Part shown: positions 7,028-49,308 of the stretch, piece by piece | How positions within the stretch are numbered: position 1 is the first letter of the stretch | Layout: each line of letters begins with the position of its first letter | Position numbers and translations under genes: made by a program | Virus record (IMG/VR): IMGVR_UViG_3300008050_000019 | Direction: 5' to 3' (one strand) | From: a virus | DNA length: 49,320 nt | Notes under the pieces: generated by a model | The model's database searches: none | Told to the model about the DNA's origin: nothing | What the model saw: the letters and a program-made list of their open reading frames with translations, nothing else

Positions 7028-7078
7028 AATTTACATTTTATTCAATTTTCAAAGAAACAAATCACAAAATGATTTGAA

Positions 7079-7324: not shown

Positions 7325-7326
7325 GA

Positions 7327-7398: not shown

Positions 7399-7402
7399 AA
7401 AA

Positions 7403-7793: not shown

Positions 7794-7797
7794 AATA

Positions 7798-7871
7798 AGC
7801 AAGTAAGGGGATTCGAACCCCTACATCAAGAGTGGAAATCTTGCATGCTATCCATTAAACATCATACTCGC
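7798..7871 (-). tRNA. tRNA-Gly (anticodon TCC)
   Basis: acceptor GCGAGTA/TACTTGC, D arm ATGT/GCAT, anticodon arm CAAGA-TTTCCAC-TCTTG, T arm AGGGG-TTCGAAT-CCCCT, U73. Confidence 0.8.
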
Positions 7872-7968
7872 ATACTCGATTTTGTTTTAACCTCATCATG
7901 TTAAATAATTATATAACATTTTTTTTCATTTAACACTTAATTTAAAACAAAATTGAAATTCTTATTCT

Positions 7969-8154
7969 TTAATCAGCAAACTTGTGAATGTTCCCACCCA
8001 CCTTCGTAACCATATTCTGAATGAACTCAGCACGCCCCAGAGCCCGCCAAGCAATTTTTAGTTCATCATCAATACGCTGGGTTGCATCCTTGATGGTTTC
8101 CTTTAACTTTCTAAAAGACTCTTCCATCTCTTGGTCAGTTTGATCATTACTCAT
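7969..8154 (-). CDS. hypothetical small protein (61 aa)
   Basis: six-frame ORF between tRNA genes. Confidence 0.35.
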   Translation of the reverse strand: MSNDQTDQEMEESFRKLKETIKDATQRIDDELKIAWRALGRAEFIQNMVTKVGGNIHKFAD

Positions 8155-8201
8155 AATTTATTTTATCACCTATAATATCCAATGACATATTTTATTTTTA
8201 A

Positions 8202-8288
8202 CGGAAGGCAGAAGGATTGAACTCCATCCACTTTTAAGAACCCACTGATTAGCAAACAGCGACCAGAACCAATCTGGTATTACCTTCC
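8202..8288 (-). tRNA. tRNA-Ser (anticodon GCT), class II
   Basis: acceptor GGAAGGT/GCCTTCC, D arm CCAG-ATTGGTT-CTGG, anticodon loop TTGCTAA, long variable arm. Confidence 0.65.
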
Positions 8289-8293
8289 AAAAG

Positions 8294-8407
8294 TTACGTT
8301 ACCAGGAGTCGAACCTGGCTTGTCAACCAGACACCAGATGAAAACATCTTGAATGGATTCGAACCACTATTACTCGCGCGCAGAGTATATACCGACTTAC
8401 TAACGTA
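8294..8407 (-). tRNA. irregular or nested tRNA-like locus (two T-arm signatures inside one perfect 7-bp acceptor pairing)
   Basis: TACGTTA (8401..8407) pairs perfectly with TAACGTA next to T arm CCAGG-TTCGACT-CCTGG (8302..8318); a second T arm AGTGG-TTCGAAT-CCATT lies between. Confidence 0.3.
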
Positions 8408-8413
8408 ACCAGA

Positions 8414-8486
8414 GGTACTCGAAGGGGATTGAACCCTCATCGTTCGGACCACAGCCGAAAGCTCTAACCATTGAGCTACGAGCACC
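8414..8486 (-). tRNA. tRNA-His (anticodon GTG) with genome-encoded G-1
   Basis: acceptor GTGCTCG/CGAGTAC preceded by G, D arm GCTC/GAGC, anticodon arm TTCGG-CTGTGGT-CCGAA, T arm GAGGG-TTCAATC-CCCTT. Confidence 0.8.
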
Positions 8487-8491
8487 ATAAA

Positions 8492-8563
8492 AGCCTGCGA
8501 GAGGAATTCAACCCCCATTTCTTGATTACAAAACAAGAGTAATAAGCATTATACTACACAGGC
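8492..8563 (-). tRNA. tRNA-Thr (anticodon TGT)
   Basis: acceptor GCCTGTG/CGCAGGC, anticodon loop TTTGTAA, T loop TTGAATT (G56). Confidence 0.6.
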
Positions 8564-8896
8564 ATTATTATTTATCTTTGTTGTGTTTATATTATAAAGC
8601 GAAATTTTCACTTTAACACATAAAATAAATATAAATTTTTCTTTTATTCAATTTTCAAATAACTCTTCCAACCTCTTTCAAGGCCTAAAGGTTACTTGAA
8701 AGAGGGCAGGAAACTAGGTTGGTAGTTTTGTACCTTGCGCTGTCTTATCACTTACACGCAAAAAGTGAATGGGATTAGTTAAATAGTCCCATCTTTCATT
8801 TGCGCAAATTTTAATATGATTATACATAGCAGTTTTAACCTTCGTTGTGATTAATATATACCACTAGGAAAAAGCTTTGTTCAATAAAAAATGATT

Positions 8897-9550: not shown

Positions 9551-11136
9551 ATTTTAATTTCTTCATCTACCCAATGGGCGAAATCTATGTAGTTTTTGAA
9601 ATCAATCGGTTGACCATCATGCGTTTCACCAGACGTCAAATGCCCATCATAAATTTTATTATATAGATTATTATAATACGCAATAGCCCCAGCTGCCTCT
9701 GCGATCATCTCTGATGTTGCGATCGCAGAGATATTACCATCCCAATCATCATCTTGCATGAACGCGGCGTCTTGTAACACACCTGCTGTACGTTTTACGA
9801 AGTCCTCATATGCATCAGGACTAAGCTGTTTTTGTAGCGCTTTAATATACTTGAATAAATTGTCTGTGTTGCCTTTGTATATCCATTTAAAATATGCTTC
9901 TGGAACGAGCTCTGGAGAAGACATGACACGTTTCAGTATTTTAATCGATAATACCGGGTTGTCATCCCAATTCCTGGCATACCCATCCAAAAATCCCTTC
10001 GCAATTGACTCATTCCCACTATCAAATATTTGATTTTGTTGTTGTTTTGTTACACCATTTTCTTCTGACGCATATCTTGCTATGAAATAGTTAACTCCTT
10101 CATCATTCGCTGCAAGCGCTGCCTCTATTAAATCATTAGTGTATTTAAATCCCTCTCCATATTCGAATACGCGTAGCGCGGTAGCCGCGGATCTTACTCT
10201 GCCTGAGTTTATTAGATCAGTGACGAGTGGCCCAGTGATACTCACGGGCTCGTCATACAGCATGTCACTGATATGAGCATGCAATGTTTCATCGCTTGTT
10301 TCATTAAAAAGCTTTTCTCTGATTTCTGATGGCGTATTCGGATTTTCGAGTAGCACCGTCTGACAAGTTTTATCATTCGCATACTTTTTAATGAGTTCCT
10401 GATCATCAGTTTTTGACAAAGTATATAACAACATTTCTCCCGAACTCATGCAGTCTTCGTGAATGACTTTTATAACATCATCACCCACCATATTCTCGAG
10501 TATATCGGCGCTAAATGTAGCATCCGTTGCATCAAAATTCTGTTGTGTGAAAGGTTTAACTTCCGTGCGCACCATTGCGACTGCTATCTTATGGTACTTA
10601 TCATCTTTATCTTTTGATTTATCGATAATAAAGTAAAACTTCACCCCTCTCTTAACATATGAAGCAAAATAATTATGAGACTGAGTAGCAGCGATACACC
10701 ACTTTGTCCCCCTACCATAATAACATGACGCTTCCTTTGTCGTAACTCTCAAGACGACTATGCTTCCCTGTGCATATATTACCTGAGCACCACTCTTGGC
10801 AAGTTTTTTGTCTTCGCCTTTTGAAGTTCCGAGAATTTCAAAAGCATTTCGCAAATCGGCCAGCGTAGCATATGAATTTATATCTTTAACTTGCAGTCTT
10901 TGCTTTTCTTTTTCAAATTTCTTTATTAAGTTGACAATTTCTGCAACAGGTTCATCATTAATTGCTTGTTTTAGCATCCAGTCAAGATACTTTTTTGTAG
11001 GTGACGGGTCTGCAATAGCTAATCTATCAATTATTTTAATATGGTCAGGATACTTAACTTTTAAGTCATCAATCCTACCTTCCGAAAGAAGTGTTTTTGC
11101 TAAAACTTCTTTAATAAGCCTTTTGATATTGTCCAT
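9532..11136 (-). CDS. hypothetical large protein (534 aa)
   Basis: long ORF with even composition; no recognised motif. Confidence 0.65.
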   Translation of the reverse strand: MDNIKRLIKEVLAKTLLSEGRIDDLKVKYPDHIKIIDRLAIADPSPTKKYLDWMLKQAINDEPVAEIVNLIKKFEKEKQRLQVKDINSYATLADLRNAFEILGTSKGEDKKLAKSGAQVIYAQGSIVVLRVTTKEASCYYGRGTKWCIAATQSHNYFASYVKRGVKFYFIIDKSKDKDDKYHKIAVAMVRTEVKPFTQQNFDATDATFSADILENMVGDDVIKVIHEDCMSSGEMLLYTLSKTDDQELIKKYANDKTCQTVLLENPNTPSEIREKLFNETSDETLHAHISDMLYDEPVSITGPLVTDLINSGRVRSAATALRVFEYGEGFKYTNDLIEAALAANDEGVNYFIARYASEENGVTKQQQNQIFDSGNESIAKGFLDGYARNWDDNPVLSIKILKRVMSSPELVPEAYFKWIYKGNTDNLFKYIKALQKQLSPDAYEDFVKRTAGVLQDAAFMQDDDWDGNISAIATSEMIAEAAGAIAYYNNLYNKIYDGHLTSGETHDGQPIDFKNYIDFAHWVDEEIKIWESFV

Positions 11137-18489: not shown

Positions 18490-18919
18490 TCCTGCCTAGC
18501 TATCCACTTGTCACGCGCAACAGGGGCACCACCCTACGACGCCCAAAAAAACACTCGAGAAAAATTTGAGAAGTGCGACAAAATGGTCTTGTATGGGTGT
18601 GGTGGGCAATGGTTGGGAAAGTTTTGGGCAGCGGGGGACAAAATTTCTCTCGAAAATCTGGAAAAATCTCCCAGCAGAGAAGGGCGCTTAGGCCGCCCTA
18701 GGCAGCCCCACAGGCCGCCCACACACCTTGCTACGGGCCGGGGGGCCCCAGGCCCCCGTTATATAGGCCCCAAGGGGCCCCCAAGAGGGGCCAGGCCCCT
18801 ACGTGCAGAATGATGAGGGGTACTATGGGGCTCTCCAGAATGCCGACACGAGTGCTCCTGTGCACGCAGAATACAGGGAAGTCCCGGGCTCTGTACAGGT
18901 CTAAATAAAATAAAAAAAG

Positions 18920-19090
18920 CCTGTACAGTCTCTGATTTTCCACTGTCGAAAATAAGTGAATTTAGCTGTATCTATTTCCTCGAGCCTGTGTTACTATATT
19001 CTTACCAGGTCAGGAATGGCACTGGGAAAACGGAGTTTAAATAATTATAAAATAATCCTGTTCTTTGAACCGAGATTGTGTTATAATATT
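18920..19090 (+). repeat. ~170-bp direct repeat, copy 1 (promoter-bearing leader of GC-rich paralog 1)
   Basis: cctgtaca..ccactgtcgaaaa.aagtgaa...ctgtatctattt...taccaggtcaggaatggcactg..gagtttaaataattataaaataatcctgttcttt..gagatt.tgttataat recurs at 21470..21640. Confidence 0.7.
19077..19087 (+). promoter_or_regulatory. extended -10 promoter TGTGTTATAAT
   Basis: matches the window-wide consensus TGTGTTATAATATTCTTA; 56 nt upstream of ATG 19144. Confidence 0.55.
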
Positions 19091-19143
19091 CTTACCAACT
19101 GGGGAGCTTAAAACCTTCCCCCCAAACAGAAAGCAGAGTCACT

Positions 19144-19671
19144 ATGACCTTCAAATTTACCGTCGGACAAACCTACAACGTCATCGACGAGAAGGGAGCC
19201 CGCGTCAACAAGGCCGGTGTGGTCGCCATCTCCGAACGGGAGAACAAGGGTGTCCTTACTCCTGACATGGACCTTGAGTACATCGGGAAGGCCGCCAAGG
19301 ACACGCCCCAGGCCGGACACCACATGTTCAAATTGCCCGAGGGTGTTGAAATCCTGGGTGAGACCACGATCGCCGGAGTCCGAAACCACTTCGACTTCAA
19401 TGCGGCTTACGTTCAAGCCAAGAAAAATATCCCGACCAAGGGGACGCTGCAGGAGCGTGCCGACGAGGCCACTCGCCAAGCGGAAGCAGCCAGCGACCAT
19501 GCCGAGAAGCTGCAAAGGATTGCTGCAGACCTGAGGGTCGAAATCCTCTGCCTCCAAGCGGATGAGCAGAAGGCTGCGGAGGCTGCGGCTAAGACACAGG
19601 CCGAAATCGACGCCTCCTGGGATGAGGCTGAGGCACAAGCCTCAGGGTACACCACCAACGCCCCAGAGTAA
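19144..19671 (+). CDS. GC3-rich paralog family member 1 (175 aa, N-terminal conserved domain and Ala/Glu-rich C-terminus)
   Basis: GxTYNVI..KGA...PDMDL.Y.GK...HH.F.LPEGV..LG..TI.G..NHFD shared with 21873..22409 and 40570..41214; GC-rich codons in an AT-rich genome. Confidence 0.7.
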   Translation: MTFKFTVGQTYNVIDEKGARVNKAGVVAISERENKGVLTPDMDLEYIGKAAKDTPQAGHHMFKLPEGVEILGETTIAGVRNHFDFNAAYVQAKKNIPTKGTLQERADEATRQAEAASDHAEKLQRIAADLRVEILCLQADEQKAAEAAAKTQAEIDASWDEAEAQASGYTTNAPE

Positions 19672-21038: not shown

Positions 21039-21085
21039 AGGAATATTATATCACAGGTGATTGAGGAAAGATACAACTAAGTGAT

Positions 21086-21391: not shown

Positions 21392-21469
21392 AAGAATATT
21401 ATATCACAAGTGATTGAGGAAAGATACCATTAAGTTCATTATGATTTATTTTCAATTAGCAGAGAAAAA

Positions 21470-21640
21470 CCTGTACAAGGCACGAAATTCCACTGTCGAA
21501 AAAGAGTGAAAATAACTGTATCTATTTTTCTGAGCCTATGATACCATATTCATACCAGGTCAGGAATGGCACTGAGTAAATACTGAGTTTAAATAATTAT
21601 AAAATAATCCTGTTCTTTTGAATGAGATTATGTTATAATT
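21470..21640 (+). repeat. ~170-bp direct repeat, copy 2 (leader of GC-rich paralog 2)
   Basis: see 18920..19090. Confidence 0.7.
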
Positions 21641-21872: not shown

Positions 21873-22409
21873 ATGGCTATCTCACTCATCGTCGGCAACA
21901 CCTACAACGTCATTGGGGCGAAAGGGGCGTTTACCAACGCGCAGATTATGGTGGCGATTTCCGAGAACAAGCAGGTCGGCCTTGTCACCCCTGACATGGA
22001 CCTGAAATACCTCGGGAAGCTTGCGGGCGGCAAGAGCGGCGGGAAGCATCACACCTTCCAACTCCCCGAGGGAGTAACCGTGCTGGGCAGCAACACCATC
22101 GTGGGACACCCGAACCACTTCGATGTGGCAGCAGGGTACAACGCGAACAAGGTTGGGGCGACCAAAGGGACCCTCGCCGAGCAAATCGCCACGGCATCCC
22201 GCAATGTAGCGGAAGCCCAGGCTCACCTGGCACGAGCCCAAGGCCGCATGGCAGAACTGGAGCAGAAACGAGTCGAGACCGAAGCGGGCATCGAAAAGGC
22301 AGCCGCCGAAAAGGCGAAAGCCGGGCCCTGCACCGTCTTCACCCCCGAGGAGATCGCTGGGTGGGAGCAAATGGAAGCTGAGCGAAAGGCCGCCGCTTCC
22401 GCTGAGTAA
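21873..22409 (+). CDS. GC3-rich paralog family member 2 (178 aa)
   Basis: conserved N-terminal domain shared with 19144..19671; Ala/Glu/Lys-rich C-terminus. Confidence 0.7.
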   Translation: MAISLIVGNTYNVIGAKGAFTNAQIMVAISENKQVGLVTPDMDLKYLGKLAGGKSGGKHHTFQLPEGVTVLGSNTIVGHPNHFDVAAGYNANKVGATKGTLAEQIATASRNVAEAQAHLARAQGRMAELEQKRVETEAGIEKAAAEKAKAGPCTVFTPEEIAGWEQMEAERKAAASAE

Positions 22410-25122: not shown

Positions 25123-25195
25123 CCTGCCATTCTCTTTCTAATAATGTTGTAATATTCTTGTATCTTCCGAGAATATTCGTGATATAATATTATTA

Positions 25196-28530: not shown

Positions 28531-28589
28531 GTCGAAACGGGTTTAACCCGTCACTTGGGAGTTCCTTCCCAGGTCTGATGAGACAGGAG
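28531..28589 (+). ncRNA. hammerhead ribozyme, type II (HH1); predicted cleavage after C28552
   Basis: GUC-GAAA-[ACGGG-uuuaa-CCCGU]-C|A-[CUUGGGA-guuccu-UCCCAGG]-U-CUGAUGA-GAC-AGGAG; 3' AGGA can pair loop-I UCCU. Confidence 0.8.
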
Positions 28590-29488: not shown

Positions 29489-30040
29489 TCACTCCCTGTG
29501 AACAGCACGAAAAGTAGCCGTTAACCCTTCCTCTTTATTCCTGGCGAGACACCACAGCCTATACTCAGAAACCGTCATTGGCTGTCCATTGATGCTGTAA
29601 CTCTCCGCCCGAGTCTTTGTTCTACGTGACCAACTTCTGTATGAAGGTCCAGTCTCGCAGTGTTCTCTTCCTTCGAACATATGCTGTTCTGACCATACAC
29701 TCCCGTCTTCATCATATACTATCACAGCCGGTCCATCTTCTCTATGGTATAGACCATGAGTATAATACTTATCTGTGAGCTTAATTCCTTGTCTCGTCAT
29801 GCAGTATGCAGGCCCATCCGTTCTATGATAGATGCCTAGCGGTCCCTTAAAATCAGCTATCGAAGGATTAAAGAGCCTCTGATCACCTGCAAAACCCACC
29901 CTATGTTGATAAATTTGATAAATGCTGTTCTGTGAAAGTGTACTATCTATCATCACAAAGTGTGCAGAGACTTCATAACCCTCAAGCTTTCTTACAATCT
30001 TGAGAGTATTCTCGTCATAGATACTAGACGTCCATTCCAT
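29489..30040 (-). CDS. HREDGPA / MORN-like repeat protein
   Basis: YHRTDGPAY, YHREDGPAV repeats; leaderless TGTGATATTATAAAAT-ATG. Confidence 0.6.
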   Translation of the reverse strand: MEWTSSIYDENTLKIVRKLEGYEVSAHFVMIDSTLSQNSIYQIYQHRVGFAGDQRLFNPSIADFKGPLGIYHRTDGPAYCMTRQGIKLTDKYYTHGLYHREDGPAVIVYDEDGSVWSEQHMFEGREHCETGPSYRSWSRRTKTRAESYSINGQPMTVSEYRLWCLARNKEEGLTATFRAVHRE

Positions 30041-30106
30041 ATTTTATAATATCACATCTAGCGAGCTCCTACAACATATTTTACTCACGCTCGCCGGCGC
30101 AAAAAG

Positions 30107-30433
30107 TTATCTTTTAAAAGTTGATTCTAAGCCCTTTTTGCAGCCTCTAACAAGGCAATGTAGCCTGAATATTTCGATTGACAGCACCACTCCCTCTTGA
30201 TACCAGATCTGATAATAAACCTCACCTGTGTGGTAATATGAGATGTATGCTGGCCCATCGTCTCTGTGTATTAAGCCATTTACATACCAGCGCTCGTAGT
30301 TAATGTTGCCATTTGGGTAATAAGCGATAACTGCTGGCTTATCTTTCCTATGTGGTCTGCAGTTTTGATACCAGTATTCTGAGCTAATTTTGCCGTTTGA
30401 ATAATAATCAATTATTGATTCAGCACCATCCAT
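30107..30433 (-). CDS. HREDGPA / MORN-like repeat protein with conserved C-terminal tail
   Basis: WYxNGxxHRDDGPA repeats; tail FRLHCLVRGCKKGLESTFKR; leaderless TGTGATATTATAAACTG-ATG. Confidence 0.65.
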   Translation of the reverse strand: MDGAESIIDYYSNGKISSEYWYQNCRPHRKDKPAVIAYYPNGNINYERWYVNGLIHRDDGPAYISYYHTGEVYYQIWYQEGVVLSIEIFRLHCLVRGCKKGLESTFKR

Positions 30434-30640
30434 CAGTTTATAATATCACATCTGATGAACTTTTGCAACATATTTTACTCACACTCGCCGGCGCAAAAAG
30501 TTATCTTTTTTTGAAAAAAAGGGTTATAAGAGCACATTATCATGAACGGTAAAAAATCATTAAAGTTGCAAAAGCTGTATTAAATGAGACAGGAATGTCA
30601 TATAATATTTTAAGGGACAGGAAAATTATAATGAGCAAGC

Positions 30641-33600: not shown

Positions 33601-33660
33601 AATGTCGAAACACCTTCGGGTGTCATATTGGGTGACCTCCAACGTCTGATGAGATAGGTC
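33601..33660 (+). ncRNA. hammerhead ribozyme, type II (HH2); predicted cleavage after C33624
   Basis: GUC-GAAA-[ACACC-uucg-GGUGU]-C|A-stemI(UUGGG..GACCU..CCAA)-CUGAUGA-GAU-AGGUC; AGGUC pairs loop-I GACCU. Confidence 0.8.
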
Positions 33661-34247: not shown

Positions 34248-34329
34248 CATCCTTGTATCCTTCGTGTCCTTCTTGTATTAAAATATTTCAGGATTCGGGA
34301 ATCACCCAATCTTTTGAGATAGGATTCAT

Positions 34330-34483: not shown

Positions 34484-34540
34484 TTCGAAACGCCCTAAGG
34501 GCGTCATGTTGGGTGACCTCCAACGTCTGATGAGATAGGT
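34484..34540 (+). ncRNA. hammerhead ribozyme, type II (HH3); predicted cleavage after C34505
   Basis: GAAA-[ACGCCC-uaa-GGGCGU]-C|A then sequence identical to HH2 from stem I onward; stem III differs by compensatory changes. Confidence 0.75.
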
Positions 34541-34552: not shown

Positions 34553-34678
34553 ATGAATATCACGAAACCCAAACCCACATCTGCAGTTATTACGCACACC
34601 TGCGGGCCAGCCGAGAAGACGTATAAAGTTACAAGCACCGTCAAGCTCAAGAAAGTGAGCACAAAGGAGCTAAAATAA
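34553..34678 (+). CDS. small ORF (~41 aa) downstream of HH3
   Basis: AAGGAG SD then ATG; MNITKPKPTSAVITHTCGPAEKTYKVTSTVKLKKVSTKELK. Confidence 0.35.
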   Translation: MNITKPKPTSAVITHTCGPAEKTYKVTSTVKLKKVSTKELK

Positions 34679-38013: not shown

Positions 38014-38276
38014 CGTAAGAATATTATAACATATTCATGAAACAAAAGAACTTGTTTTTATCATTTTGTGTATAATATTATCACCGATTTTATATAACCA
38101 CAGCCGCATAAGTGCTATTAGGCTCACCTCTCGGGGACTGGATATCCTTTATTATATGGATATATATCCAAAATTATGGTTTATTAGAGGTGAGCCCAGG
38201 AATACCGTCAATAAAAGTAAGATAGTGAAATCTGTTGTATCTTCAGATTCAATGATGTGTTATAATATTTTAACCG

Positions 38277-38555
38277 ATGGAAATACCACAAAGCGTTCAC
38301 GAAAAAGTTCATAGTGTTGAGTCACAATGGCATTATACTATCATGACAAAGTATGGTTATAAGACTGAAGTGAGGGAGCGTAAGGGGCTTGTTCGTTCGT
38401 ATAATTATTCATCATCCAATGATTGTAAAGACATCACTTGCTCGACCGGCGTCAACGGAGATCATTGGTTTACCAGATCCGAGTGTGGCGGGTGGGCGGG
38501 AGGGTATGCAGGTGAACTAGAAGATTACCTTCGCTCAATTACGGAAACTAAATAG
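38277..38555 (+). CDS. hypothetical protein (92 aa), leaderless
   Basis: TGTGTTATAATATTTTAACCG-ATG. Confidence 0.5.
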   Translation: MEIPQSVHEKVHSVESQWHYTIMTKYGYKTEVRERKGLVRSYNYSSSNDCKDITCSTGVNGDHWFTRSECGGWAGGYAGELEDYLRSITETK

Positions 38556-38593
38556 TATCATTGGTTAAACATACGTGTTATAATATATCTACA

Positions 38594-39228: not shown

Positions 39229-39269
39229 TCGTTTCATTAGTATCCTGTCTGTATTATAATAATCACACA

Positions 39270-39491: not shown

Positions 39492-39540
39492 AATATTCCT
39501 TTCTTCAGTATCTCACCTGTGTTATAATATTCTTACAATT

Positions 39541-39741: not shown

Positions 39742-39802
39742 TAATGCCTGTATCTATCGAGTCAAGACAGTGTTAATATATTCTTAGGAATTGAGGAACA
39801 AC

Positions 39803-40180
39803 ATGAAATTAGAAATTACTCTTGCACCATGTATTAAACAACTCGGCGGCGGACCTGAAAGTGAACTGCAGTTTGAGCCCGCGATCACTGTCAACGTGTA
39901 CGAAGCAGCGCGGCCGCCAAGAAATACGATGCCGAAAAGTGTTGAGTCTACCACGGATTTATTTCCAGCCGAAGACGAAATTGAACTCACTCTTAAAGCG
40001 CGCCAGTCTGGTGTCTTGCTAGAACAAACTAGGGTTTTAGCACTGGTTAACGAAATGCATGAGACTCTATGCGAAGCTCTTAAGGAAGATGGCCACTTCA
40101 ACGGGAATCACACCAAGTATGATGCTCAGATTGATGCACTCAATCAACTCCAAAAATTAATTTTGGGCACAGAAAAATAA
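39803..40180 (+). CDS. hypothetical protein (125 aa)
   Basis: AGTGTTAATATATTCTTAGGAATTGAGGAACAAC-ATG. Confidence 0.5.
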   Translation: MKLEITLAPCIKQLGGGPESELQFEPAITVNVYEAARPPRNTMPKSVESTTDLFPAEDEIELTLKARQSGVLLEQTRVLALVNEMHETLCEALKEDGHFNGNHTKYDAQIDALNQLQKLILGTEK

Positions 40181-40195
40181 AGGTATCCATCGAAC

Positions 40196-40313
40196 CAAGA
40201 CAGTGTTAATATAAACCAACAAACCGGATAATGGAAATTAAATAAAGAGAAAAAATAAAGAAAAAATAAAGTATCTTTAGAGCCAAGACAGTGTTAATAT
40301 AAACCAACAAATG
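40196..40313 (+). repeat. two 29-nt direct repeats CCAAGACAGTGTTAATATAAACCAACAAA (promoter-like) flanking A-rich spacer
   Basis: copies at 40196..40224 and 40285..40313; third related copy at 39762..39790. Confidence 0.6.
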
Positions 40314-40403
40314 ATGAAAGGCGGAATTAAAATGAAGAAAACCTGACGATCTTGACTTTAATAAATAAATGCAAAACTGGGAATTAAGAAACGGAAAGAA
40401 AAA

Positions 40404-40460
40404 GCCGAAACGCTGAGAAGCGTCTGCTAAGACTAACCCCTTGGCACTGATGAGGCAGGT
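40404..40460 (+). ncRNA. hammerhead ribozyme, type II (HH4); predicted cleavage after C40424
   Basis: GCC-GAAA-[CGCU-gaga-AGCG]-UC|U-[GCUAAG..UUGGC]-A-CUGAUGA-GGC-AGGU. Confidence 0.7.
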
Positions 40461-40569
40461 AAATAAATTAATTACCTTGTTTCAATTGAATTAAGAATGT
40501 AATAATATATTCTTACAAACGGGGATTGGAAATTCCCCCTCAACATTCAAAAGAAAGCAATAACCAATT

Positions 40570-41214
40570 ATGCCTAAAGCAATCAACTTCGTCTCCGGCC
40601 AGTCTTACAACGTCTTCGAGGACAAGGGTTCCGCCATCAATGGTAAGGGTCAGCTCCAAATTTCCGAAAACAAGAATAAGGGGAGCATCACCCCAAGCAT
40701 GGACCTCACGTACGTCGGTCGTGGGGCAAAGGACACTCCCAACGCCGGCAAGGATATCTTCGACTTGCCTGCTGGGGTGGTACTTCAAGGCCAAAGCCAA
40801 ATCGTTGGCCACAAGAACCACTTCGATTCCCAGACCGAATACAATCTCGCCAAGAACGGAAGTGCCCGAAAGGGTACTTTGGCGGAGCAGATTGCCGACG
40901 TCAGGAGCCGGCTGGCTTCGAATGCCACTTTCCGCCTCAAGCTTGAAGGGCAAATTGCTGCTCTTGAGGTTAAGCAGTCCGAACAAGAAGTAGCTGAGGA
41001 GCTTGCGGCACAGGTGAATGCTGCGGCTGCTGCTGATTTGGCTGCTGCAGAAGCTGAAGGGCCTAGCGCCCCTGAAGAGGTCTCTGAGGCTGACGCTGAG
41101 GAAGCGGAAGCATTGGCTGCTGCAGAAGCGGAGAGTGATTCCGAGGTCGACCTTGAGGCTTTGATGGGGAGCCTTACGGAATCTACGCCAGTCGTCGACT
41201 ACGACGAAGCCTAA
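40570..41214 (+). CDS. GC3-rich paralog family member 3 (214 aa, acidic Ala/Glu-rich C-terminus)
   Basis: GQSYNVFEDKGS...PSMDLTYVGRGAKDTP...VGHKNHFD matches 19144 and 21873 genes. Confidence 0.7.
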   Translation: MPKAINFVSGQSYNVFEDKGSAINGKGQLQISENKNKGSITPSMDLTYVGRGAKDTPNAGKDIFDLPAGVVLQGQSQIVGHKNHFDSQTEYNLAKNGSARKGTLAEQIADVRSRLASNATFRLKLEGQIAALEVKQSEQEVAEELAAQVNAAAAADLAAAEAEGPSAPEEVSEADAEEAEALAAAEAESDSEVDLEALMGSLTESTPVVDYDEA

Positions 41215-41228: not shown

Positions 41229-41287
41229 GCCGAAACCCCCTCGGGGGTTATCCTAGGGTTACCTCCTAGGGTCTGATGAGGCAGGTT
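41229..41287 (+). ncRNA. hammerhead ribozyme, type II (HH5); predicted cleavage after GUU at 41249
   Basis: GCC-GAAA-[CCCCC-ucg-GGGGG]-UU|A-[UCCUAGGG-uuaccu-CCUAGGGU]-CUGAUGA-GGC-AGGU. Confidence 0.7.
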
Positions 41288-41309
41288 CCCTCCCTATTCT
41301 TAGGAAAAC

Positions 41310-41546
41310 ATGAAACAAAAAATTACTCGGGCAATGAACAAATCTGATTGGAAGTGCCCATGTCATGGTAAACAAGTTGTTGAAAAGCGGCGGATGAGAG
41401 AGGATAATCAAGGCCGACGTAAATACGCTGGTACATATTTTTCATGCCCCCAGTATTCTGAGTGTGGCTACTACGTCTCAGGGACATTTCAAGTCCCACT
41501 AACTGATGATGCTGGCATCGCCCTTAACCGTCAAAAGAAAGACTAA
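41310..41546 (+). CDS. hypothetical protein with CxxC...C...CxxC motif (78 aa)
   Basis: WKCPCHG ... FSCPQYSECGYY. Confidence 0.5.
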   Translation: MKQKITRAMNKSDWKCPCHGKQVVEKRRMREDNQGRRKYAGTYFSCPQYSECGYYVSGTFQVPLTDDAGIALNRQKKD

Positions 41547-41750: not shown

Positions 41751-41810
41751 GTCGAAACGGGCTTCGGCCCGTCGTTCTGGAATGACTCCCAGGGCCTGAT
41801 GAGACAAGTC
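41751..41810 (+). ncRNA. hammerhead ribozyme, type II (HH6); predicted cleavage after C41773
   Basis: GUC-GAAA-[CGGGC-uucg-GCCCG]-UC|G-[UUCUGG..CCAGGGC]-CUGAUGA-GAC-AAGUC; AAGUC pairs loop-I GACU. Confidence 0.8.
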
Positions 41811-42240: not shown

Positions 42241-42301
42241 GTCGAAACGGGCTTCGGCCCGTCATTCTGGTCTAACCTCCAGAATCTGATGAGACAGGTT
42301 A
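42241..42301 (+). ncRNA. hammerhead ribozyme, type II (HH7); predicted cleavage after C42263
   Basis: GUC-GAAA-[CGGGC-uucg-GCCCG]-UC|A-[AUUCUGG-ucuaaccu-CCAGAAU]-CUGAUGA-GAC-AGGUUA; AGGUUA pairs loop-I UAACCU. Confidence 0.8.
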
Positions 42302-42312
42302 AAGGAAGCAAG

Positions 42313-42606
42313 ATGAAGTGCATAGTTTATCACACGTTGATGGCAGGGAAAATATTTCTTCCTAACCCGGAGCTGCCGGTTGCTGAGTACGCAAAGACTG
42401 TTGATTGTTGTCGGAATCTTGGCCATAAAGAAATTTATACTTTCAACCCGCTAATTGTTTCATGCTTTGATGCTTCCGATGTGTTCATCTACGGAACGGG
42501 CATCTGCCTAGCCGATCATCCTGCGTGGTCTGAGTGGAAAGACTCACTTAGTACTGGGGAATTTTATGAACATGTCGGAGCCGACATCACCAATTGGGGG
42601 TTTTGA
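42313..42606 (+). CDS. hypothetical protein (97 aa) downstream of HH7
   Basis: AAAGGAAG SD then ATG 42313. Confidence 0.5.
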   Translation: MKCIVYHTLMAGKIFLPNPELPVAEYAKTVDCCRNLGHKEIYTFNPLIVSCFDASDVFIYGTGICLADHPAWSEWKDSLSTGEFYEHVGADITNWGF

Positions 42607-44334: not shown

Positions 44335-44727
44335 TTGTTCTTTATGATTAAGGGCTCAGTCATTACACGCTATACAAGTGACATTGAACTTCATACATCA
44401 TATTATGATAATGGAAACCGATGGCTTGAGCGTTATATCAACATAAAGTTTTATAAACTGCACAGGGAAGATGGACCTGCTGAGATTACTTATGAAGTGA
44501 GTGGTGAGGTCACATCAAAGAAATGGTATATAGAGGGTCAATTGCATAGAGAAGACGGGTGCGCACATATGCTTAGGGGTTTTGATGCTGGGACATTCAT
44601 TTCGTACTATTTTTTAAAAGACGTTAACTATAGTGTAGGTGACTTCCGCTTGTATTGCTTGGCATCTGGTAACATAAAAGGGTTAGAATCTACTTTTAGC
44701 AACAACATAAACATCAAAAATATGTAA
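44335..44727 (+). CDS. HREDGPA / MORN-like repeat protein
   Basis: YKLHREDGPAEITY, LHREDGCA; tail DFRLYCLASGNIKGLESTFS. Confidence 0.6.
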   Translation: MFFMIKGSVITRYTSDIELHTSYYDNGNRWLERYINIKFYKLHREDGPAEITYEVSGEVTSKKWYIEGQLHREDGCAHMLRGFDAGTFISYYFLKDVNYSVGDFRLYCLASGNIKGLESTFSNNINIKNM

Positions 44728-44771
44728 AATATACGTGGATATTTGATTAATAACTTGTGATATAATATACT

Positions 44772-45182
44772 ATGAAGCCTGATTATATATGGTATACGGA
44801 TAAAATTCGATTAGAGACGGACAGAACGAAGACTGGCAAAATAACCTCAGAGATTTACACTATACTCTCTGGTGAAAAGCCAAATAATTGGAACTTCGAA
44901 AAAACAAGAATTTATCACAGAGAAGATGGTCCAGCGTTTGTGTCATATTTTGAAGATGGTACTATAATGCATGAATTCTGGTACAGAAATGGATCACCCA
45001 ACAATCCTATTGGACCGGCGTGTGTGTCGTACAATCAAGCTGGTAAGGTTGTAAAAAAATCATATTTCATAATGGGTTATGGTAAAGTAGACGAAGCCTT
45101 TTTTCGACTACACTGTCTTATAACTGGCAACGCGGAAGGCCTAAATTCCACCTTCAGGGAAGAACATAGTGGAAGCGTATAA
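44772..45182 (+). CDS. HREDGPA / MORN-like repeat protein
   Basis: YHREDGPAFVSY; tail FFRLHCLITGNAEGLNSTF. Confidence 0.6.
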   Translation: MKPDYIWYTDKIRLETDRTKTGKITSEIYTILSGEKPNNWNFEKTRIYHREDGPAFVSYFEDGTIMHEFWYRNGSPNNPIGPACVSYNQAGKVVKKSYFIMGYGKVDEAFFRLHCLITGNAEGLNSTFREEHSGSV

Positions 45183-45600
45183 AGTTATTGATTATACGGA
45201 CGAGATCAAGATACTACGTGTGTATGATGCTAAAGGCATTTTAATACGCGAAGAGTATAGCAAAGAGGGAGCCCGCTCCAAAGACAACTCTGTGTATATT
45301 GAACCTTATCATCTTGATACACGCGAATGGTTTACAAAAAATCGGCGCCATAGAGACGATGGGCCTGCTGAGATTTGTTATTTCGAAAATGGAGACATCT
45401 TCCGAAAATCTTGGTACAAAGATGATCTTCTTCATAATCAAGCAGGGCCTGCATATATACGGTATAGTGATGATGGTCGTGTCAGTATGAAATACTATGT
45501 GTTATGGGGAACTGACGTAAGCTTTCATGATTTTCGTATGTACTGTCTTATAACTGGTAACATGGAGGGTTTAGCTTCTACTTACGAAACCACTAAATGA
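45169..45600 (+). CDS. HREDGPA / MORN-like repeat protein
   Basis: RHRDDGPAEICY; tail DFRMYCLITGNMEGLASTY. Confidence 0.6.
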   Translation: MEAYKVIDYTDEIKILRVYDAKGILIREEYSKEGARSKDNSVYIEPYHLDTREWFTKNRRHRDDGPAEICYFENGDIFRKSWYKDDLLHNQAGPAYIRYSDDGRVSMKYYVLWGTDVSFHDFRMYCLITGNMEGLASTYETTK

Positions 45601-46003
45601 TTCCCTCTAACATATTGGCGTATTTTTCTAAATTGGTTTTCTCGTATGTTTCTTCAAAGGCATCAAAATCTTTTTGAATTATCGTATGCAACCTGTACTC
45701 TTCGAGTGTTACGAATTCTCCATTAAAAGAATAATATTTATTGCCATCTTCGATCAGTGATATGCCATTGTTCTTACAAACCTCACCCATCACCCAAAAT
45801 TCAACGCAAGTGATTTTGTTGCGTATATATTTGATATATGCTGGACCACTTTCATTATGAAGTATCCTGTGAGTAGCATGTTCGTTGTCTAAAGCATAAT
45901 AATAAACTATACCTGAGTGCTTTGTGAGTCTAACGACCTTTTTAAAGTGAGCTTTTTCATCTGGCCTAATCAAGCTTTTTATATGTTGATTCAAGTCCAT
46001 CAT
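45593..46003 (-). CDS. HREDGPA / MORN-like repeat protein (diverged)
   Basis: LHNESGPAYIKY; tail EYRLHTIIQKDFDAFEETY. Confidence 0.55.
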   Translation of the reverse strand: MMDLNQHIKSLIRPDEKAHFKKVVRLTKHSGIVYYYALDNEHATHRILHNESGPAYIKYIRNKITCVEFWVMGEVCKNNGISLIEDGNKYYSFNGEFVTLEEYRLHTIIQKDFDAFEETYEKTNLEKYANMLEGII

Positions 46004-46370
46004 TATAACCTCTAATAAGACAATATAGCCTGTAGTGCTCGATAGTTAAGTATTCATCATTGATAACAAAATAGACATCTGGAATGCCGTCAGGATTGTA
46101 CGTGATACGCGCTGGCCCGTTTGTATTATGCAGTCTATCTTTTCTGTACCATCCTTTACTTACAACTTTCCTATAAGGCTTATTGCAGGCATGAATGCCA
46201 CCATCATCATACAGAAAACTTGAGAATATAATGCGAGCTGGGCCATCAACTCGGTGTAGGGTGTGATCAGCAGCTGATCTGTACTCAATGCTGACTGGGT
46301 TCGTATGATCACGGCGCATGAAGCGCAACAGCTTCAATATCCCGGGAGCGTAATTAAAAATTCTTATCAT
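45966..46370 (-). CDS. HREDGPA / MORN-like repeat protein
   Basis: LHRVDGPARIIF, LHNTNGPARITY; tail HYRLYCLIRGYNDGLESTY. Confidence 0.6.
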   Translation of the reverse strand: MIRIFNYAPGILKLLRFMRRDHTNPVSIEYRSAADHTLHRVDGPARIIFSSFLYDDGGIHACNKPYRKVVSKGWYRKDRLHNTNGPARITYNPDGIPDVYFVINDEYLTIEHYRLYCLIRGYNDGLESTYKKLD

Positions 46371-46797
46371 ATGTTGACCTAAGCCCTCTTGTATAACCGA
46401 GCTTTAAGCAGTGAAGCCTATACTCCCCTTTTGATAATATCGTCCCGTTTAAAGCGTATATCCTACTATAAACTTCGCCCTTGCAGTTGTAGTACATACT
46501 GGCAGGACCTGTAATGTTATGCCTATGGCCCTCTTCATACCAGCTCTCTATCCTGATAGAGCCGTCAGCGAAGAACTCAATATATGCAGGACCATCTTCC
46601 TTGTGAAGCATCCCCTGAGCGTTTCCGGTTCTAAATTTGTTAAATTTAAGGTTTTCCCATGTTAAGCTCTGTGGCATTTTGTCTTCGACCGTGTAGCTTT
46701 TGCTTATCATATGCCCAGCAGGACCTTCACCAATAACACCCTCAGGAAGGTATGCTATTGTGCAAATCCCAGTGTCTAATTGAATAATTTCTTGCAT
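46354..46797 (-). CDS. HREDGPA / MORN-like repeat protein
   Basis: LHKEDGPAYIEF; tail EYRLHCLKLGYTRGLRSTY. Confidence 0.6.
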   Translation of the reverse strand: MQEIIQLDTGICTIAYLPEGVIGEGPAGHMISKSYTVEDKMPQSLTWENLKFNKFRTGNAQGMLHKEDGPAYIEFFADGSIRIESWYEEGHRHNITGPASMYYNCKGEVYSRIYALNGTILSKGEYRLHCLKLGYTRGLRSTYDKNF

Positions 46798-46800
46798 ACT

Positions 46801-47268
46801 TTATTTATCCCCCGAAATAGAGAAAGTAGCAGTTAACCCTTTCATATTATTAGTGGCAAGACAGTGAAGCCTATACTCACCTTCTGTTATGTATTGGTCA
46901 AACAAGTAGTACCTTACTACCCATGGAGCGCGTGGGTGATCCCGTTCAATGATCGCCGGTCCATCTTCTCTGTGGAGGCGACCATAATGATAGTAAGTTA
47001 TCACACTGGGAGAACCACAAAGAAAGAAAGTTATGTGAGCTGGCTCATTATCTCGGTGATATGTTACAGAGCAAGTCTCATTACTAGGTAATGTATAATA
47101 TACACAGAAGTTGCTATTTTCGGCCTTAGGCCCGTAATATGGACCCCATGTTGTGACAGTTTTTACGAGAGAAATTCCGTTGACACAGATGTTTTCTTTT
47201 CTTATTATCATATTTCTCATTTTAGATTTAGAAGTCGTAGATAACTGCTTCGTCATATTTGCAGTCAT
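46801..47268 (-). CDS. HREDGPA / MORN-like repeat protein
   Basis: LHREDGPAIIER; tail EYRLHCLATNNMKGLTATF. Confidence 0.6.
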   Translation of the reverse strand: MTANMTKQLSTTSKSKMRNMIIRKENICVNGISLVKTVTTWGPYYGPKAENSNFCVYYTLPSNETCSVTYHRDNEPAHITFFLCGSPSVITYYHYGRLHREDGPAIIERDHPRAPWVVRYYLFDQYITEGEYRLHCLATNNMKGLTATFSISGDK

Positions 47269-47623
47269 AAGTTGCTTCTAAACCCACTAGATTATCATTA
47301 GTTAAACAATAAAGCCTATATTCCATGAGTGTCATTGTAGTTCCGAGAATGGCATATGATATGCCAATAACTGCACCTGTAATTTTATAGTCAATATATG
47401 ATGGACCCTCTTCATGGTGTTCAAGCCCTGATCTTGCATATAATACACTTAATAAGTTGCCGAGACGTGAGTATTGCACTCGAGCAGGGCCAGAATCTCT
47501 ATGGAAGAGACCCTCTGCAGAATACATCAGTTTACCACATTCATAGTCAATCTCAGAATCCCCGAGTTCATTCACAAGTGTATACACTTCAGAAAGTATA
47601 GTGCCGTCTTCATAAAAAGCCAA
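47228..47623 (-). CDS. HREDGPA / MORN-like repeat protein
   Basis: FHRDSGPARVQY; tail EYRLYCLTNDNLVGLEATY. Confidence 0.6.
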   Translation of the reverse strand: MAFYEDGTILSEVYTLVNELGDSEIDYECGKLMYSAEGLFHRDSGPARVQYSRLGNLLSVLYARSGLEHHEEGPSYIDYKITGAVIGISYAILGTTMTLMEYRLYCLTNDNLVGLEATYDCKYDEAVIYDF

Positions 47624-47830
47624 CGTTTTGCGTGTAACTCTATCATATGAAGATATTTTTTCATATGATTATATTAACACATTTGATTAAACATTTACAA
47701 CAAATGTGTTAAACACTAGTCTGTTTATTTGTTACAAAGTGTTATAAATTAGTGATATAATTTATATAGAAATATGGATATTCAATCTATTATGTGCTTT
47801 TTTGGATGTCACAGGCAATAATCTCTACCT

Positions 47831-48196
47831 ATGAAAAAAGTCAGCCAGTACTCATCTAATCTCCGCCTAACAGAGAGTTATACCAATGATATCAAAGTAT
47901 CTGAAGCTTATACTCTTGAGGACATCGAGAGCTGTGAAGATGGACCATGCTATCATCGTGAAGATGGCCCGGCATTCATAAGTTACTACTCCACTGGTGA
48001 GCGTCAATGTGAGTATTGGTTTATACGTGACAAACTCAACAGAAAGAATGGACCATCAATAATTCAGTATCACAGAAACCAAAGCGTGATCGCGAAGACG
48101 TACATGGTAGACAGCACTAAGGTATCTGTGAATTATTTTAGAGTATTATGCCTTGTGACCAGCAACGTAAAGGGCTTAGCATCAACTTTCGAGTAA
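47831..48196 (+). CDS. HREDGPA / MORN-like repeat protein
   Basis: YHREDGPAFISY; tail YFRVLCLVTSNVKGLASTFE. Confidence 0.6.
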   Translation: MKKVSQYSSNLRLTESYTNDIKVSEAYTLEDIESCEDGPCYHREDGPAFISYYSTGERQCEYWFIRDKLNRKNGPSIIQYHRNQSVIAKTYMVDSTKVSVNYFRVLCLVTSNVKGLASTFE

Positions 48197-48204
48197 ATGA
48201 CATT

Positions 48205-48621
48205 ATGAAACTCAATGGCATAAAGAAGCATTATTATGATAATGACAACCTAATGGAGGTTAGTATTTGGAGGGATGACCGGCTTCATAGTACTGGTAGA
48301 CCTGCTTTACAAATATTTTTAAACAATGGAGACCTTAGATGCGAAGTATTTTACCAAAATGGGTTAATACACAGAGAAAATGGCCCAGCGGTTGAAAAAT
48401 TTTATGATACTACGCCTGAGCACTGCTGGTTTAGAGCGCACTTTAGACATGGCATATTACATAATGCGCGTGGACCAGCGAGAGAACATAGCCCTGTCCG
48501 GAATATACCACACAAAGTGTACTCACTTAATGGGCATAAACTATCTGTTAGCGAATTTAGAATATTTTTGCTTACCAACAAAAATTTTGAAGCTTTGGCT
48601 AACACGTATGATGATTTATAA
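48205..48621 (+). CDS. HREDGPA / MORN-like repeat protein
   Basis: IHRENGPAVEKF, LHNARGPAREHS; tail EFRIFLLTNKNFEALANTY; ATG 9 nt after previous stop. Confidence 0.55.
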   Translation: MKLNGIKKHYYDNDNLMEVSIWRDDRLHSTGRPALQIFLNNGDLRCEVFYQNGLIHRENGPAVEKFYDTTPEHCWFRAHFRHGILHNARGPAREHSPVRNIPHKVYSLNGHKLSVSEFRIFLLTNKNFEALANTYDDL

Positions 48622-48825
48622 TTCCTTGATATTATACCAAAGTAGCACCAGGGTAATCAGGTTCACACCCGATAAACTATAATCATATTATAATAATGGC
48701 CTATATCAAAAATTCCGGTTCATTAGAAGTGATTACATGAATACCAATAAAACTACATTATGTCGTGAATAAATAGTGTTAATCACTTGTGCAATGTGAT
48801 ATTATAGCAAACAAGGCAAAATCAT

Positions 48826-49014
48826 ATGAACGAGATAAAATTACACGATGAGTGGGTCACGGCGTATAAGCGAATGAAAAACTGGATCACGACGCAGGTA
48901 CCGCTTGATGAAGCGCAGGATGATGCGACGCGTGAAGTGACAGATGCTTTACGAAAAGATACATCAGACAAATTGGATGCATGGCAAAATGAACTCATCA
49001 AAGAGTCAGAGTGA
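48826..49014 (+). CDS. hypothetical acidic protein (62 aa)
   Basis: six-frame ORF after AT-rich promoter-like region. Confidence 0.4.
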   Translation: MNEIKLHDEWVTAYKRMKNWITTQVPLDEAQDDATREVTDALRKDTSDKLDAWQNELIKESE

Positions 49015-49035
49015 ACTATTCCCTACTTATCAACC

Positions 49036-49308
49036 TTACGCAACCCCACTATCTTCGAATGTGCTAGCTAATCCTGCTTGGTTGTTAACTATTAAGCACC
49101 TAAGGCGAAACTCTTCAACTGTATATATCATATCTTCTAACCAGTATGAACCACTTCTGGTAACATAACTATCACGTATATATGCTGGACCATTTTCATT
49201 ATGGAGACGATTTCTCAAGTAAAAAGATTGTGAAGTCATTTCGCCTGATCGCGAAAATGTTTCTATTGCAGGGCCATCTTCACGATGTGTGCCAAAATCT
49301 CTATGCAT
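49036..49308 (-). CDS. HREDGPA / MORN-like repeat protein
   Basis: THREDGPAIETF, LHNENGPAYIRD; tail EFRLRCLIVNNQAGLASTFE. Confidence 0.55.
   Translation of the reverse strand: MHRDFGTHREDGPAIETFSRSGEMTSQSFYLRNRLHNENGPAYIRDSYVTRSGSYWLEDMIYTVEEFRLRCLIVNNQAGLASTFEDSGVA

Follow-up and report, generated by a model that had tools for sequence, protein, structure and literature searches.

How does a phage gene that appears to be very highly expressed obtain its mRNA when its leader combines stacked promoter-like repeats, a self-cleaving ribozyme and a further promoter-like site? This question is raised by a locus in the 49,320-nucleotide (nt) viral stretch of IMG/VR record IMGVR_UViG_3300008050_000019 (hereafter referred to as the window), in which a leader of 390 base pairs (bp; positions 40180 to 40570) precedes a plus-strand gene (40570–41214) encoding a protein of 214 amino acids (aa), termed paralog 3. 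An initial annotation of the sequence had described three promoter-like repeats, A-rich spacers, a hammerhead ribozyme (HH4) and a final promoter with a palindrome, and sequence checks located all of these leader elements where it had placed them. Taking the evidence as a whole, the best explanation, to which we assign a probability of roughly 60%, is that a very highly expressed jumbo-phage gene has this leader as its composite expression region.

In bacteria, type II hammerheads are common, and where several of them flank a single gene or short block in a prophage, they imply that long phage transcripts are processed (Perreault et al. 2011, PMC3088659). A 2019 review still treats polycistronic RNA processing by such ribozymes as a suggestion (PMC6765202). 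The present locus is a further case of multiple type II hammerheads flanking phage genes, an arrangement known since 2011; new are the embedding of one ribozyme among promoter-like sites, the existence of paralogs of which one has a ribozyme and two lack it, the gene's extreme codon bias and a weak pseudoknot. The value of the locus is limited in that the phage is known from metagenomes alone and the general phenomenon has already been described. It offers a clean natural comparison, three codon-biased paralogs sharing the same stacked leader and 5′ hairpin with the ribozyme in one only, and a ribozyme bracketed by promoter-like sites would give cut and uncut versions of one message.

Stacked promoter-like sites and a 5′-proximal hairpin

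The leader contains an exact 29-mer, CCAAGACAGTGTTAATATAAACCAACAAA, twice, at 40195 and 40283 (the 26-mer quoted in the initial annotation lies at 40198 and 40286). A 17-nt core, CAAGACAGTGTTAATAT, has three exact copies in the window, at 39763, 40196 and 40284, and no other at up to three mismatches; 0.18 matches are expected by chance, and none of 100 shuffles reached three copies. The two 29-nt repeats first described are thus real, and they form the best-conserved part of longer, 88-bp tandem units, 40171–40258 (unit A) and 40259–40346 (unit B), which are identical at 62 of 88 positions in an ungapped comparison. A repeat search covers the leader repeats with a 53-nt family at 87% identity. 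The third repeat copy exists as well, but it fronts the preceding gene: it belongs to the promoter-like site at 39750–39779 (plus strand, GTATC-N19-TAATAT), which is followed by ATTCTTAGGAATTGAGGAACAAC and an ATG at 39803 and serves the upstream gene (39803–40180, plus strand, 125 aa, no known family), outside the leader.

Aligning sites with TGTGTTATAAT-like sequence yielded a two-block motif consisting of GTWTC, 19 nt and TAWWAT, usually with TGT before the hexamer. At up to one mismatch, GTWTC-N19-TAWWAT has 35 matches in the window against 10.7 ± 3.0 expected, a number reached in none of 100 shuffles, and the zero-mismatch matches include those at 39750, 40183, 40271 and 40479. This approximately threefold over-representation, together with the position of the sites in front of open reading frames (ORFs) on both strands, upholds the original view that the stacked repeats are promoter-like. 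Unit A holds the distal site P-A (40183–40212, GTATC ... TGT-TAATAT; predicted start ~40219), and unit B the distal site P-B (40271–40300; predicted start ~40307); both have an extended −10 of the form TGT-TAATAT. The proximal site (40479–40508, plus strand, GTTTC-N19-TAATAT) carries a TAATAT hexamer with the TG displaced by 2 nt, is followed by the conserved ATTCTTACAAAC at 40509–40520 and has a predicted start at ~40515. We infer, with good support from motif enrichment and position, that the leader sites are promoters.

The A-rich spacers between the repeats, likewise noted at the outset, are 67% A (40213–40270) and 52% A (40301–40402), compared with 29% A in the whole window. Measured from the predicted P-B start, the first covers the stretch between about −40 and about −90, and its promoter-proximal half would occupy the position of an UP element. 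No terminator-like site on the plus strand was found between 40180 and 40570 in a terminator scan. Closer to the gene, the 11-mer TCAAAAGAAAG (40547–40557, plus strand, repeat family D10) ends 12 nt before the ATG; no strong Shine–Dalgarno (SD) sequence precedes the ATG at 40570, and TCAAAAGAAAG may be a weak or non-canonical ribosome-binding region. The same 11-mer also precedes the 41559 gene, an ORF whose ATG at 41550 lies 8 nt past the motif. Two other readings of the repeats were discarded. Leader peptides (ATGGAAATTAAATAA after P-A and an 11-codon ORF after P-B) have no SD sequence and are not conserved between the units, because one base change creates the second ATG. An iteron or origin function does not fit units that match the promoter family in both blocks and are spaced, at 88 bp, like the stacked sites of the paralog leaders.

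Immediately downstream of the proximal site, GGGGAUUGGAAAUUCCCCC (40521–40539, plus strand), the place of the palindrome GGGGATTGGAAATTCCCCC, is predicted to form a 5-bp, GC-rich GGGGA..UCCCC hairpin ~5 nt from the predicted proximal 5′ end. The proximal promoter-like module of 40479–40508 recurs in the leaders of paralogs 1 and 2. Downstream of the last site, each of the three leaders continues with ATTCTTAC(C)AAC-like sequence that runs straight into a GGGGA...UCCCC hairpin, 25–35 nt before the ATG. The hairpin is predicted at the same offset from the −10 hexamer in each (3/3), with a nearly invariant stem and a transcription start that is itself predicted. Because it recurs at the same place in three leaders, the palindrome, initially taken for a promoter component, is better regarded as a transcribed 5′-proximal hairpin; because its stem is nearly invariant, a role in RNA is inseparable from one in DNA.

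The stacking of sites is also found in the other paralog leaders. Two promoter-like sites ~90 bp apart stand in the paralog 1 leader and four in that of paralog 2, the latter ~91–93 bp apart and with A-rich spacers, so that the spacing of stacked sites is 88–93 bp across the leaders. Neither paralog has a hammerhead detectable in the window by the seven-copy covariance model described below, and no hammerhead was found at the loci of three distant homologues. This distribution suggests that the stacked sites and the 5′ hairpin go with the gene family, as family traits, whereas the ribozyme in the layout first proposed is no such trait and goes with a local run of ribozymes. The distal leader parts of paralogs 1 and 2 (18900–19143 and 21440–21640) are mutually homologous, with a common CCACTGTCGAAAA and a common promoter-like site followed by the hairpin CCAGGTCAGGAATGGCACTGG; given this homology, the leader was probably duplicated together with the gene. 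Two of the distant homologues have non-coding leaders of 400–600 nt (L129, 3393–4001; L127, 3601–4001), and that of L129 contains two TTATAAT sites ~180 nt apart, with both the hairpin CACCCCAAATGGGGTG and a larger, GC-rich one after the second.

The gene itself matches its first description as a GC-rich paralog. Two paralogs in the window (19144–19671 and 21873–22409) are 39–44% identical to it, and its GC content in 300-nt windows is 0.48–0.58, as against ~0.32–0.46 in the flanks. In the share of C-ending codons among NNY codons, the three paralogs rank first to third of 67 genes (0.83, 0.81 and 0.73, against a median of 0.39 and at most 0.64 elsewhere), and they are also top for GC content at third codon positions (GC3). 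The N-terminal domain alone has a GC3 of 0.68, so the Ala/Glu-rich tail is not the source of the GC-richness. This extreme synonymous codon bias, common to the three paralogs, supports the earlier suggestion that expression is very high. A GC-richer genome as horizontal source is the less likely alternative, because paralogs at ~40% identity keep the bias behind phage-typical AT-rich leaders. The encoded protein has an SH3-like small β-barrel N-terminal domain, a long helix and an acidic Ala/Glu-rich tail, and an exhaustive profile search found 27 family members among 1.84 billion representative proteins. It has no Pfam family, a single weak PHROG match that is itself of unknown function, no sequence match in the PDB and no relatives in the viral-contig scans, and a fold search with the full predicted model returned coiled-coil noise only.

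Further members of the promoter-like family show features of their own. At ~10 motif sites, the ATG lies merely 6–12 nt past the −10 hexamer, a leaderless-type geometry (examples are 21045–21074, 21398–21427 and 30440–30469 on the minus strand, 25160–25188 on the plus strand, and 38237–38266, 38555–38584, 39231–39260 and 39499–39528), which suggests that numerous small genes of the phage are transcribed as leaderless or near-leaderless mRNAs. Motif sites with a leader tend to carry a small hairpin directly after the predicted start. The sequence at 41283–41312, ATTCTTAGGAAAACATG, which follows the hammerhead at 41229 and not a −10 hexamer, reuses the ATTCTTAGGA module that follows the −10 hexamer of the site at 39750, and a minus-strand site at 37823 has the variant ATTATTAGGA. 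Ribozyme cut and transcription start may in this way deliver similar short 5′ leaders bearing the ATTCTTAGGA module.

Seven type II hammerheads in the window

HH4 (40404–40456, plus strand) matches the Rfam family Hammerhead_II (RF02276) over 40403–40464. Stem II is formed by 40404–40406 with 40454–40456 and is open to the flanks, whereas stems III (40410–40423) and I (40425–40446) are loop-closed hairpins. The catalytic core, comprising CUGAUGA (40447–40453), CGAAAC (40406–40411) and the cleavage triplet GUC (40422–40424), is intact and aligns to the model consensus (CUGAUGA, GAAA, the A15.1–U16.1 pair and the triplet), and the canonical three-stem junction is both the minimum-energy and the centroid fold of the isolated 60-nt RNA. 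The cut is predicted between C40424 and U40425, which agrees with the 5′-OH end at 40425 named in the initial annotation.

At the Rfam gathering score the window contains four type II hammerheads; looser filters add a fifth, and a self-match and core-pattern scan two more, for a total of seven. A covariance model built from these seven local copies and run unfiltered on the window finds exactly seven, at 66–84 bits, with the next best match at 12.7 bits; HH4, itself part of that model, scores 74 bits. All seven lie on the plus strand between 28.5 and 42.3 kb, with predicted 5′-OH ends at 28553, 33625, 34506, 40425, 41250, 41774 and 42264. Their alignment to the canonical fold with the loop I:tail pseudoknot has 90.5% of cells paired, and 12 pairs change on both sides; none of 500 shuffles reaches any of these measures, and slid alignments are 30–50% paired. 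Judged by this covariation, the seven copies appear to be maintained ribozymes rather than chance matches, and HH4, with six covarying siblings, a bona fide type II member.

Two hairpin-like segments at HH4 were considered as terminators and rejected. The 3′ tail of the ribozyme (40457–40477, plus strand) contains GGU (40458–40460), which can pair with the loop I ACC (40436–40438) in a 3-bp pseudoknot, and has as an alternative the pairing of AGGUAA with UUACCU (40472–40477) in a local hairpin; at ~−3.8 kcal/mol this hairpin is too weak for a terminator and is unflagged by the terminator scan. The AT-rich DNA of the tail also lies just upstream of the proximal promoter-like site. The minus-strand ‘terminator’ at 40425–40408 is just stem III plus the complement of an A-run, and no minus-strand gene converges there.

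The last four hammerheads bound units of 825, 524 and 490 nt, each with one or two small genes. The next after HH4 (41229–41282, plus strand) starts 14 nt past the stop of the 40570–41214 gene, and its predicted cut at 41249/41250, after a GUU triplet, is 35 nt after that stop. The following two, which are 84% identical, abut stops with their 5′ edges: one (41751–41805, plus strand, cut 41773/41774) that of the 41559–41750 gene, the other (42241–42295, plus strand, cut 42263/42264) the stop at 42240, with the next start probably at 42313. As listed, the ORF 42289–42606 has its ATG inside the CUGAUGA core of the latter ribozyme; 42313, preceded by AAGGAAG, is a likelier start, and public gene calls use 42340.

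Farther upstream, the copies at 28531–28584 and 33604–33655 (both plus strand) were missed by Rfam. The pseudoknot tail of the former, AGGAGC, doubles as the SD sequence for the ATG at 28595, and the latter has an A·C mismatch in stem I. The copy at 34484–34536 (plus strand), ~200 nt downstream of a promoter-like site (34255–34284), is 92% identical to that at 33604, the downstream ribosome-binding site (RBS), ATG and AAGGAGAAGTTATG included. An uncalled 41-codon ORF with a good SD sequence (34553–34678) starts 16 nt after this hammerhead, and the ~200-nt leader between the 34255–34284 site and the ribozyme contains a 20-codon hydrophobic mini-ORF.

For placement norms, an IMG/VR pattern scan for the type II subtype returned at least 120 stretches; in 80 of the stretches listed the model finds at least 194 hammerheads, and the norms are taken from the best 150 of these 194. 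Among them are 37 loci with two or more hammerheads and 10 with four or more. The 5′ edge lies at a median of 0 nt from the upstream stop (within 10 nt in 124 of 149), and stem II at a median of 26 nt from the next start (interquartile range 22–32; 126 of 150 within 50 nt; random positions, 58). Pseudoknots have 3 bp in 2 cases, 4 in 33, 5 in 57, 6 in 49 and at least 7 in 9, that is, 4–6 bp in 139 of 150. This intercistronic placement in other viral loci is as would be expected of processing sites, and the norms from the best 150 of 194 (edge at the stop, start ~26 nt on) make a useful rule for annotating phage operons. Four of the seven copies in the window are typical throughout (next start 10–31 nt away, upstream stop 0–14 nt, pseudoknot 4–6 bp); the 33604 and 34484 copies have a 6-bp pseudoknot and the next start at 16 nt, but upstream stops 140 and 236 nt off. 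HH4 is the only one of the seven to be atypical in stop, start and pseudoknot alike.

In two loci among the matches listed (L035 and L053), too, a hammerhead is followed by an A-rich spacer, a sigma-70-type promoter and the gene, which suggests that the HH4-type layout recurs but is rare among those matches. As a separate observation, four unrelated viral contigs share a conserved, GC-rich structured element of ~80 nt between a type II hammerhead and the next gene, with the sequence ..CGAGGYCA.AACGG...GTAGAGGTTGGGAC...GGCCTCGTGAC.. (L011 ~7000–7095 and L046 ~3240–3346, both minus strand; L030 7366–7500, plus strand; L026 ~10030–10157, minus strand). The L011 and L030 elements, scanned against Rfam at E ≤ 0.01, match no family.

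Predicted transcripts and competing explanations

In the proposed mechanism, the ribozyme would be transcribed by polymerase that has initiated at either distal site (P-A or P-B) or has read through from the five small upstream genes, and would then cut itself at 40424/40425. The upstream RNA would end in the stem III hairpin with a 2′,3′-cyclic phosphate, and the downstream mRNA would start with a 5′-OH directly on the stem I hairpin, since the type II scissile bond lies between these two hairpins and both cleavage products therefore end in one. Such a cut would uncouple the gene from its upstream context and provide a single defined 5′ end for either distal start. The proximal start (~40515) would give a triphosphate mRNA without the ribozyme and with the GGGGA..UCCCC hairpin first; as that site lies wholly downstream of the ribozyme, transcripts begun there are uncuttable on the 5′ side, and the 5′-uncut mRNA originally predicted from it stands. 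What the cut/uncut picture had overlooked is the second hammerhead: with its cut 35 nt past the stop, both mRNA forms would share a ribozyme-made 3′ end. Trimming at 41249/41250 would yield messages of ~825 nt and ~735 nt closed at the 3′ end by a stem III hairpin. The outcome would be one gene with two 5′-end chemistries, uncoupled from its neighbours on both sides. Hairpin-bearing 5′-OH and cyclic-phosphate ends would be poor substrates for end-dependent decay (RNase E/RppH, 3′ exonucleases). The two mRNA forms may differ in stability.

Several observations weigh against a composite expression region. No −35 element near TTGACA is present at 16–18 nt; the conserved upstream block is GTWTC, and 19 nt separate it from the hexamer. 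The leader sites also go unlisted in a generic sigma-70 scan, so that the case for promoters is one of motif enrichment and position. Paralogs 1 and 2 and the three distant homologues do without a hammerhead, which is therefore not needed for expression of the gene family. The public copies of the region, being at least 99.98% identical, give the leader hammerhead no evolutionary test of its own. The Rfam score of HH4 (37.7 bits; gathering score 37) is marginal, 0.7 bits above threshold; its placement is that of an outlier, with 223 nt separating it from the upstream stop and 113 nt from the next start; and its pseudoknot has 3 bp, as against 4–6 bp in the siblings. Most type II members have a pseudoknot of at least 4 bp, which fast cleavage requires but which does not strictly define the type. 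Reducing the loop I:tail pseudoknot from 6 to 4 bp slows cleavage ~20-fold, and a 2-bp pseudoknot more than 100-fold (PMC3088659). With 3 bp, cleavage by HH4 may be slow or partial, and complete cutting is not to be assumed. The proposal that HH4 cuts RNAs initiated upstream is thus strengthened by its being a bona fide ribozyme and weakened by its having the weakest pseudoknot of the seven and an outlying position.

The same observations would suit a weakened or decaying copy with little cleavage in vivo, in a leader that, like those of paralogs 1 and 2, would act as a triple promoter stack and give mRNA mostly of the uncut or proximal-promoter form. We consider this doubtful, though a real possibility. 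It draws on the short pseudoknot, at odds with the 4–6 bp of 139 of the best 150 of 194 references and of six siblings, and on the 20- to more than 100-fold cost in rate of losing that pairing (PMC3088659), as well as on the atypical placement, the absence of the ribozyme from the two other paralog leaders and the stem I mismatch at 33604–33655, a sign that decay does occur in the window. Yet all core nucleotides of HH4 are intact, its three stems pair and its changes relative to the siblings keep the pairing, the isolated RNA folds to the active junction, and even a slow ribozyme can cut fully within an mRNA lifetime. In a constrained-ensemble calculation, with the three stems enforced in native context, the competent fraction was low in each of the seven, a consequence of a model in which tertiary and pseudoknot energy are missing, and HH4 was no worse than the best siblings, so that no specific handicap of structure emerged besides the short pseudoknot. 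That last result also bears on a gated ribozyme, in which the weak pseudoknot and the tail hairpin (AGGUAA 40457–40462 with UUACCU 40472–40477) would leave cleavage to be set by transcription speed, Mg2+ or a factor and would fix the ratio of processed to unprocessed distal transcripts. Although a 78-nt fold puts the tail into the hairpin, the minimum-energy fold of a 141-nt context extends it into GAGGCA and so removes the 3′ strand of stem II, and pseudoknots are convenient handles for allosteric control (PMC3088659), the hairpin is weak, the ensemble shows no special handicap relative to the siblings and no conserved ligand- or protein-binding element is evident; gating is improbable. A still slimmer chance attaches to its fullest form, with HH4 a deliberately attenuated, kinetically gated ribozyme that acts as a dial for how much a very highly expressed phage gene delivers. 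The 3-bp pseudoknot would compete with the tail hairpin, which reaches over the region upstream of the proximal promoter-like site, and would thereby set the fraction of distal-promoter transcripts converted to 5′-OH mRNA.

The repeat units might instead be duplicated regulator-binding sites or recombination remnants, with the proximal site or an upstream operon promoter driving the gene. The non-canonical −35-like block and the absence of these sites from the generic scan leave room for this, as do the recent tandem duplication, which requires no function, and the post-hexamer AAACCAACAAA, which differs from the ATTCTTA of most other sites. We judge it unlikely, given that each unit matches the two blocks without a mismatch and keeps the 19-nt spacing exactly, as part of a family that is enriched threefold in the window and lies upstream of ORFs on both strands, that the extended −10 TGT-TAATAT is present, that repeat copy 1 directly precedes a gene with an SD sequence and that the ~90-bp stacking recurs in both other paralog leaders. 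More speculatively, the flanking hammerheads could free an 825-nt RNA from which an RtcB-type ligase makes a circular mRNA, or the ribozyme-bounded units could be mobile cassettes. Same-sense ribozymes do flank units of 825, 524 and 490 nt in single-gene fashion, hammerhead + RBS modules have been duplicated locally (33604/34484, 92% identical; 41751/42241, 84%), and a 5′-OH with a 2′,3′-cyclic phosphate is the end chemistry joined by RtcB. That joining reaction is treated elsewhere (PMC4787814). Nothing in the sequence requires either scenario, linear processing fully explains the intercistronic placement, no ligase was identified in the window and no long-range complementarity would bring the ends together, which makes circles or cassettes exceedingly improbable.

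Related architectures and genomic setting

As a composite expression region, the leader resembles several known systems in part. Like the hammerhead arrays (RF02276) of Perreault et al. 2011, the window has ribozymes with a loop I:3′-tail pseudoknot in several same-sense copies flanking genes, and the proposed function, cutting long phage transcripts into gene-length mRNAs, is alike; here, however, HH4 is embedded among promoter-like sites rather than placed tightly between stop and start, its pseudoknot is unusually short at 3 bp, and the host element is a ~309-kb jumbo phage, not a prophage. The order of elements also recalls a classical phage operon. In the T7 early region, promoters A1, A2 and A3 are followed by the RNase III site R0.3 and gene 0.3. 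In both loci stacked strong promoters, putative ones in the window, come before a site of RNA processing, and a small gene with high expression, again predicted for the window, comes after it; further processing sites lie between later cistrons, and processed ends carry hairpins. In the window, however, an autocatalytic cut (5′-OH, cyclic phosphate) would replace host RNase III, an extra promoter-like site lies past the processing site and no sequence relationship exists.

Other parallels concern single elements. RiboJ is an engineered insulator derived from a satellite-RNA hammerhead of different topology, with an added hairpin. As in such insulators, a hammerhead between promoter and gene would strip a promoter-specific leader and leave a uniform 5′ end with a hairpin, but HH4 is natural and of type II and has a putative bypass promoter downstream. 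The 5′ hairpin of Escherichia coli ompA, a 5′-terminal stem-loop that stabilises mRNA, is similar to that of the paralog leaders in being short, GC-rich and a few nt from the 5′ end, which here is the predicted proximal one. The phage hairpin recurs in three paralogs and at other leadered promoter-like sites, and its transcription start is only predicted. With the rrn P1–P2 tandem promoters, which are strong and have A/T-rich UP elements, the leader shares a spacing, here 88–93 bp, that allows separate polymerase occupancy, and A-tracts from about −40, whereas its −35-like block is GTWTC and not TTGACA.

A marine jumbo-phage contig of ~309 kb includes the window. The 214-aa protein is also encoded on a 308,593-bp ENA metagenome contig, and three shorter marine contigs likewise encode an identical protein; with at least 99.98% identity between the four public copies of the region and the window, these contigs and the window appear to represent one uncultured jumbo phage. 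A megablast search with the 38–44-kb region against 50,697 phage records returned no match, and the protein sequence of one large ORF of the window weakly matches jumbo phages of Pseudomonas from the PA5oct group. The genes of the window are mostly ORFans, with a lytic transglycosylase among them. A dense array on the minus strand (400–8600) contains at least 27 tRNA genes, and its match at 401–488 is above the threshold of the selenocysteine tRNA model. A further paralog family of ~90–185-aa proteins, with at least 12 copies at 25–44% pairwise identity, is encoded at 29489–30433 (minus strand) and 44335–49308 (both strands) and underlies the DNA repeat families D2 and D5.

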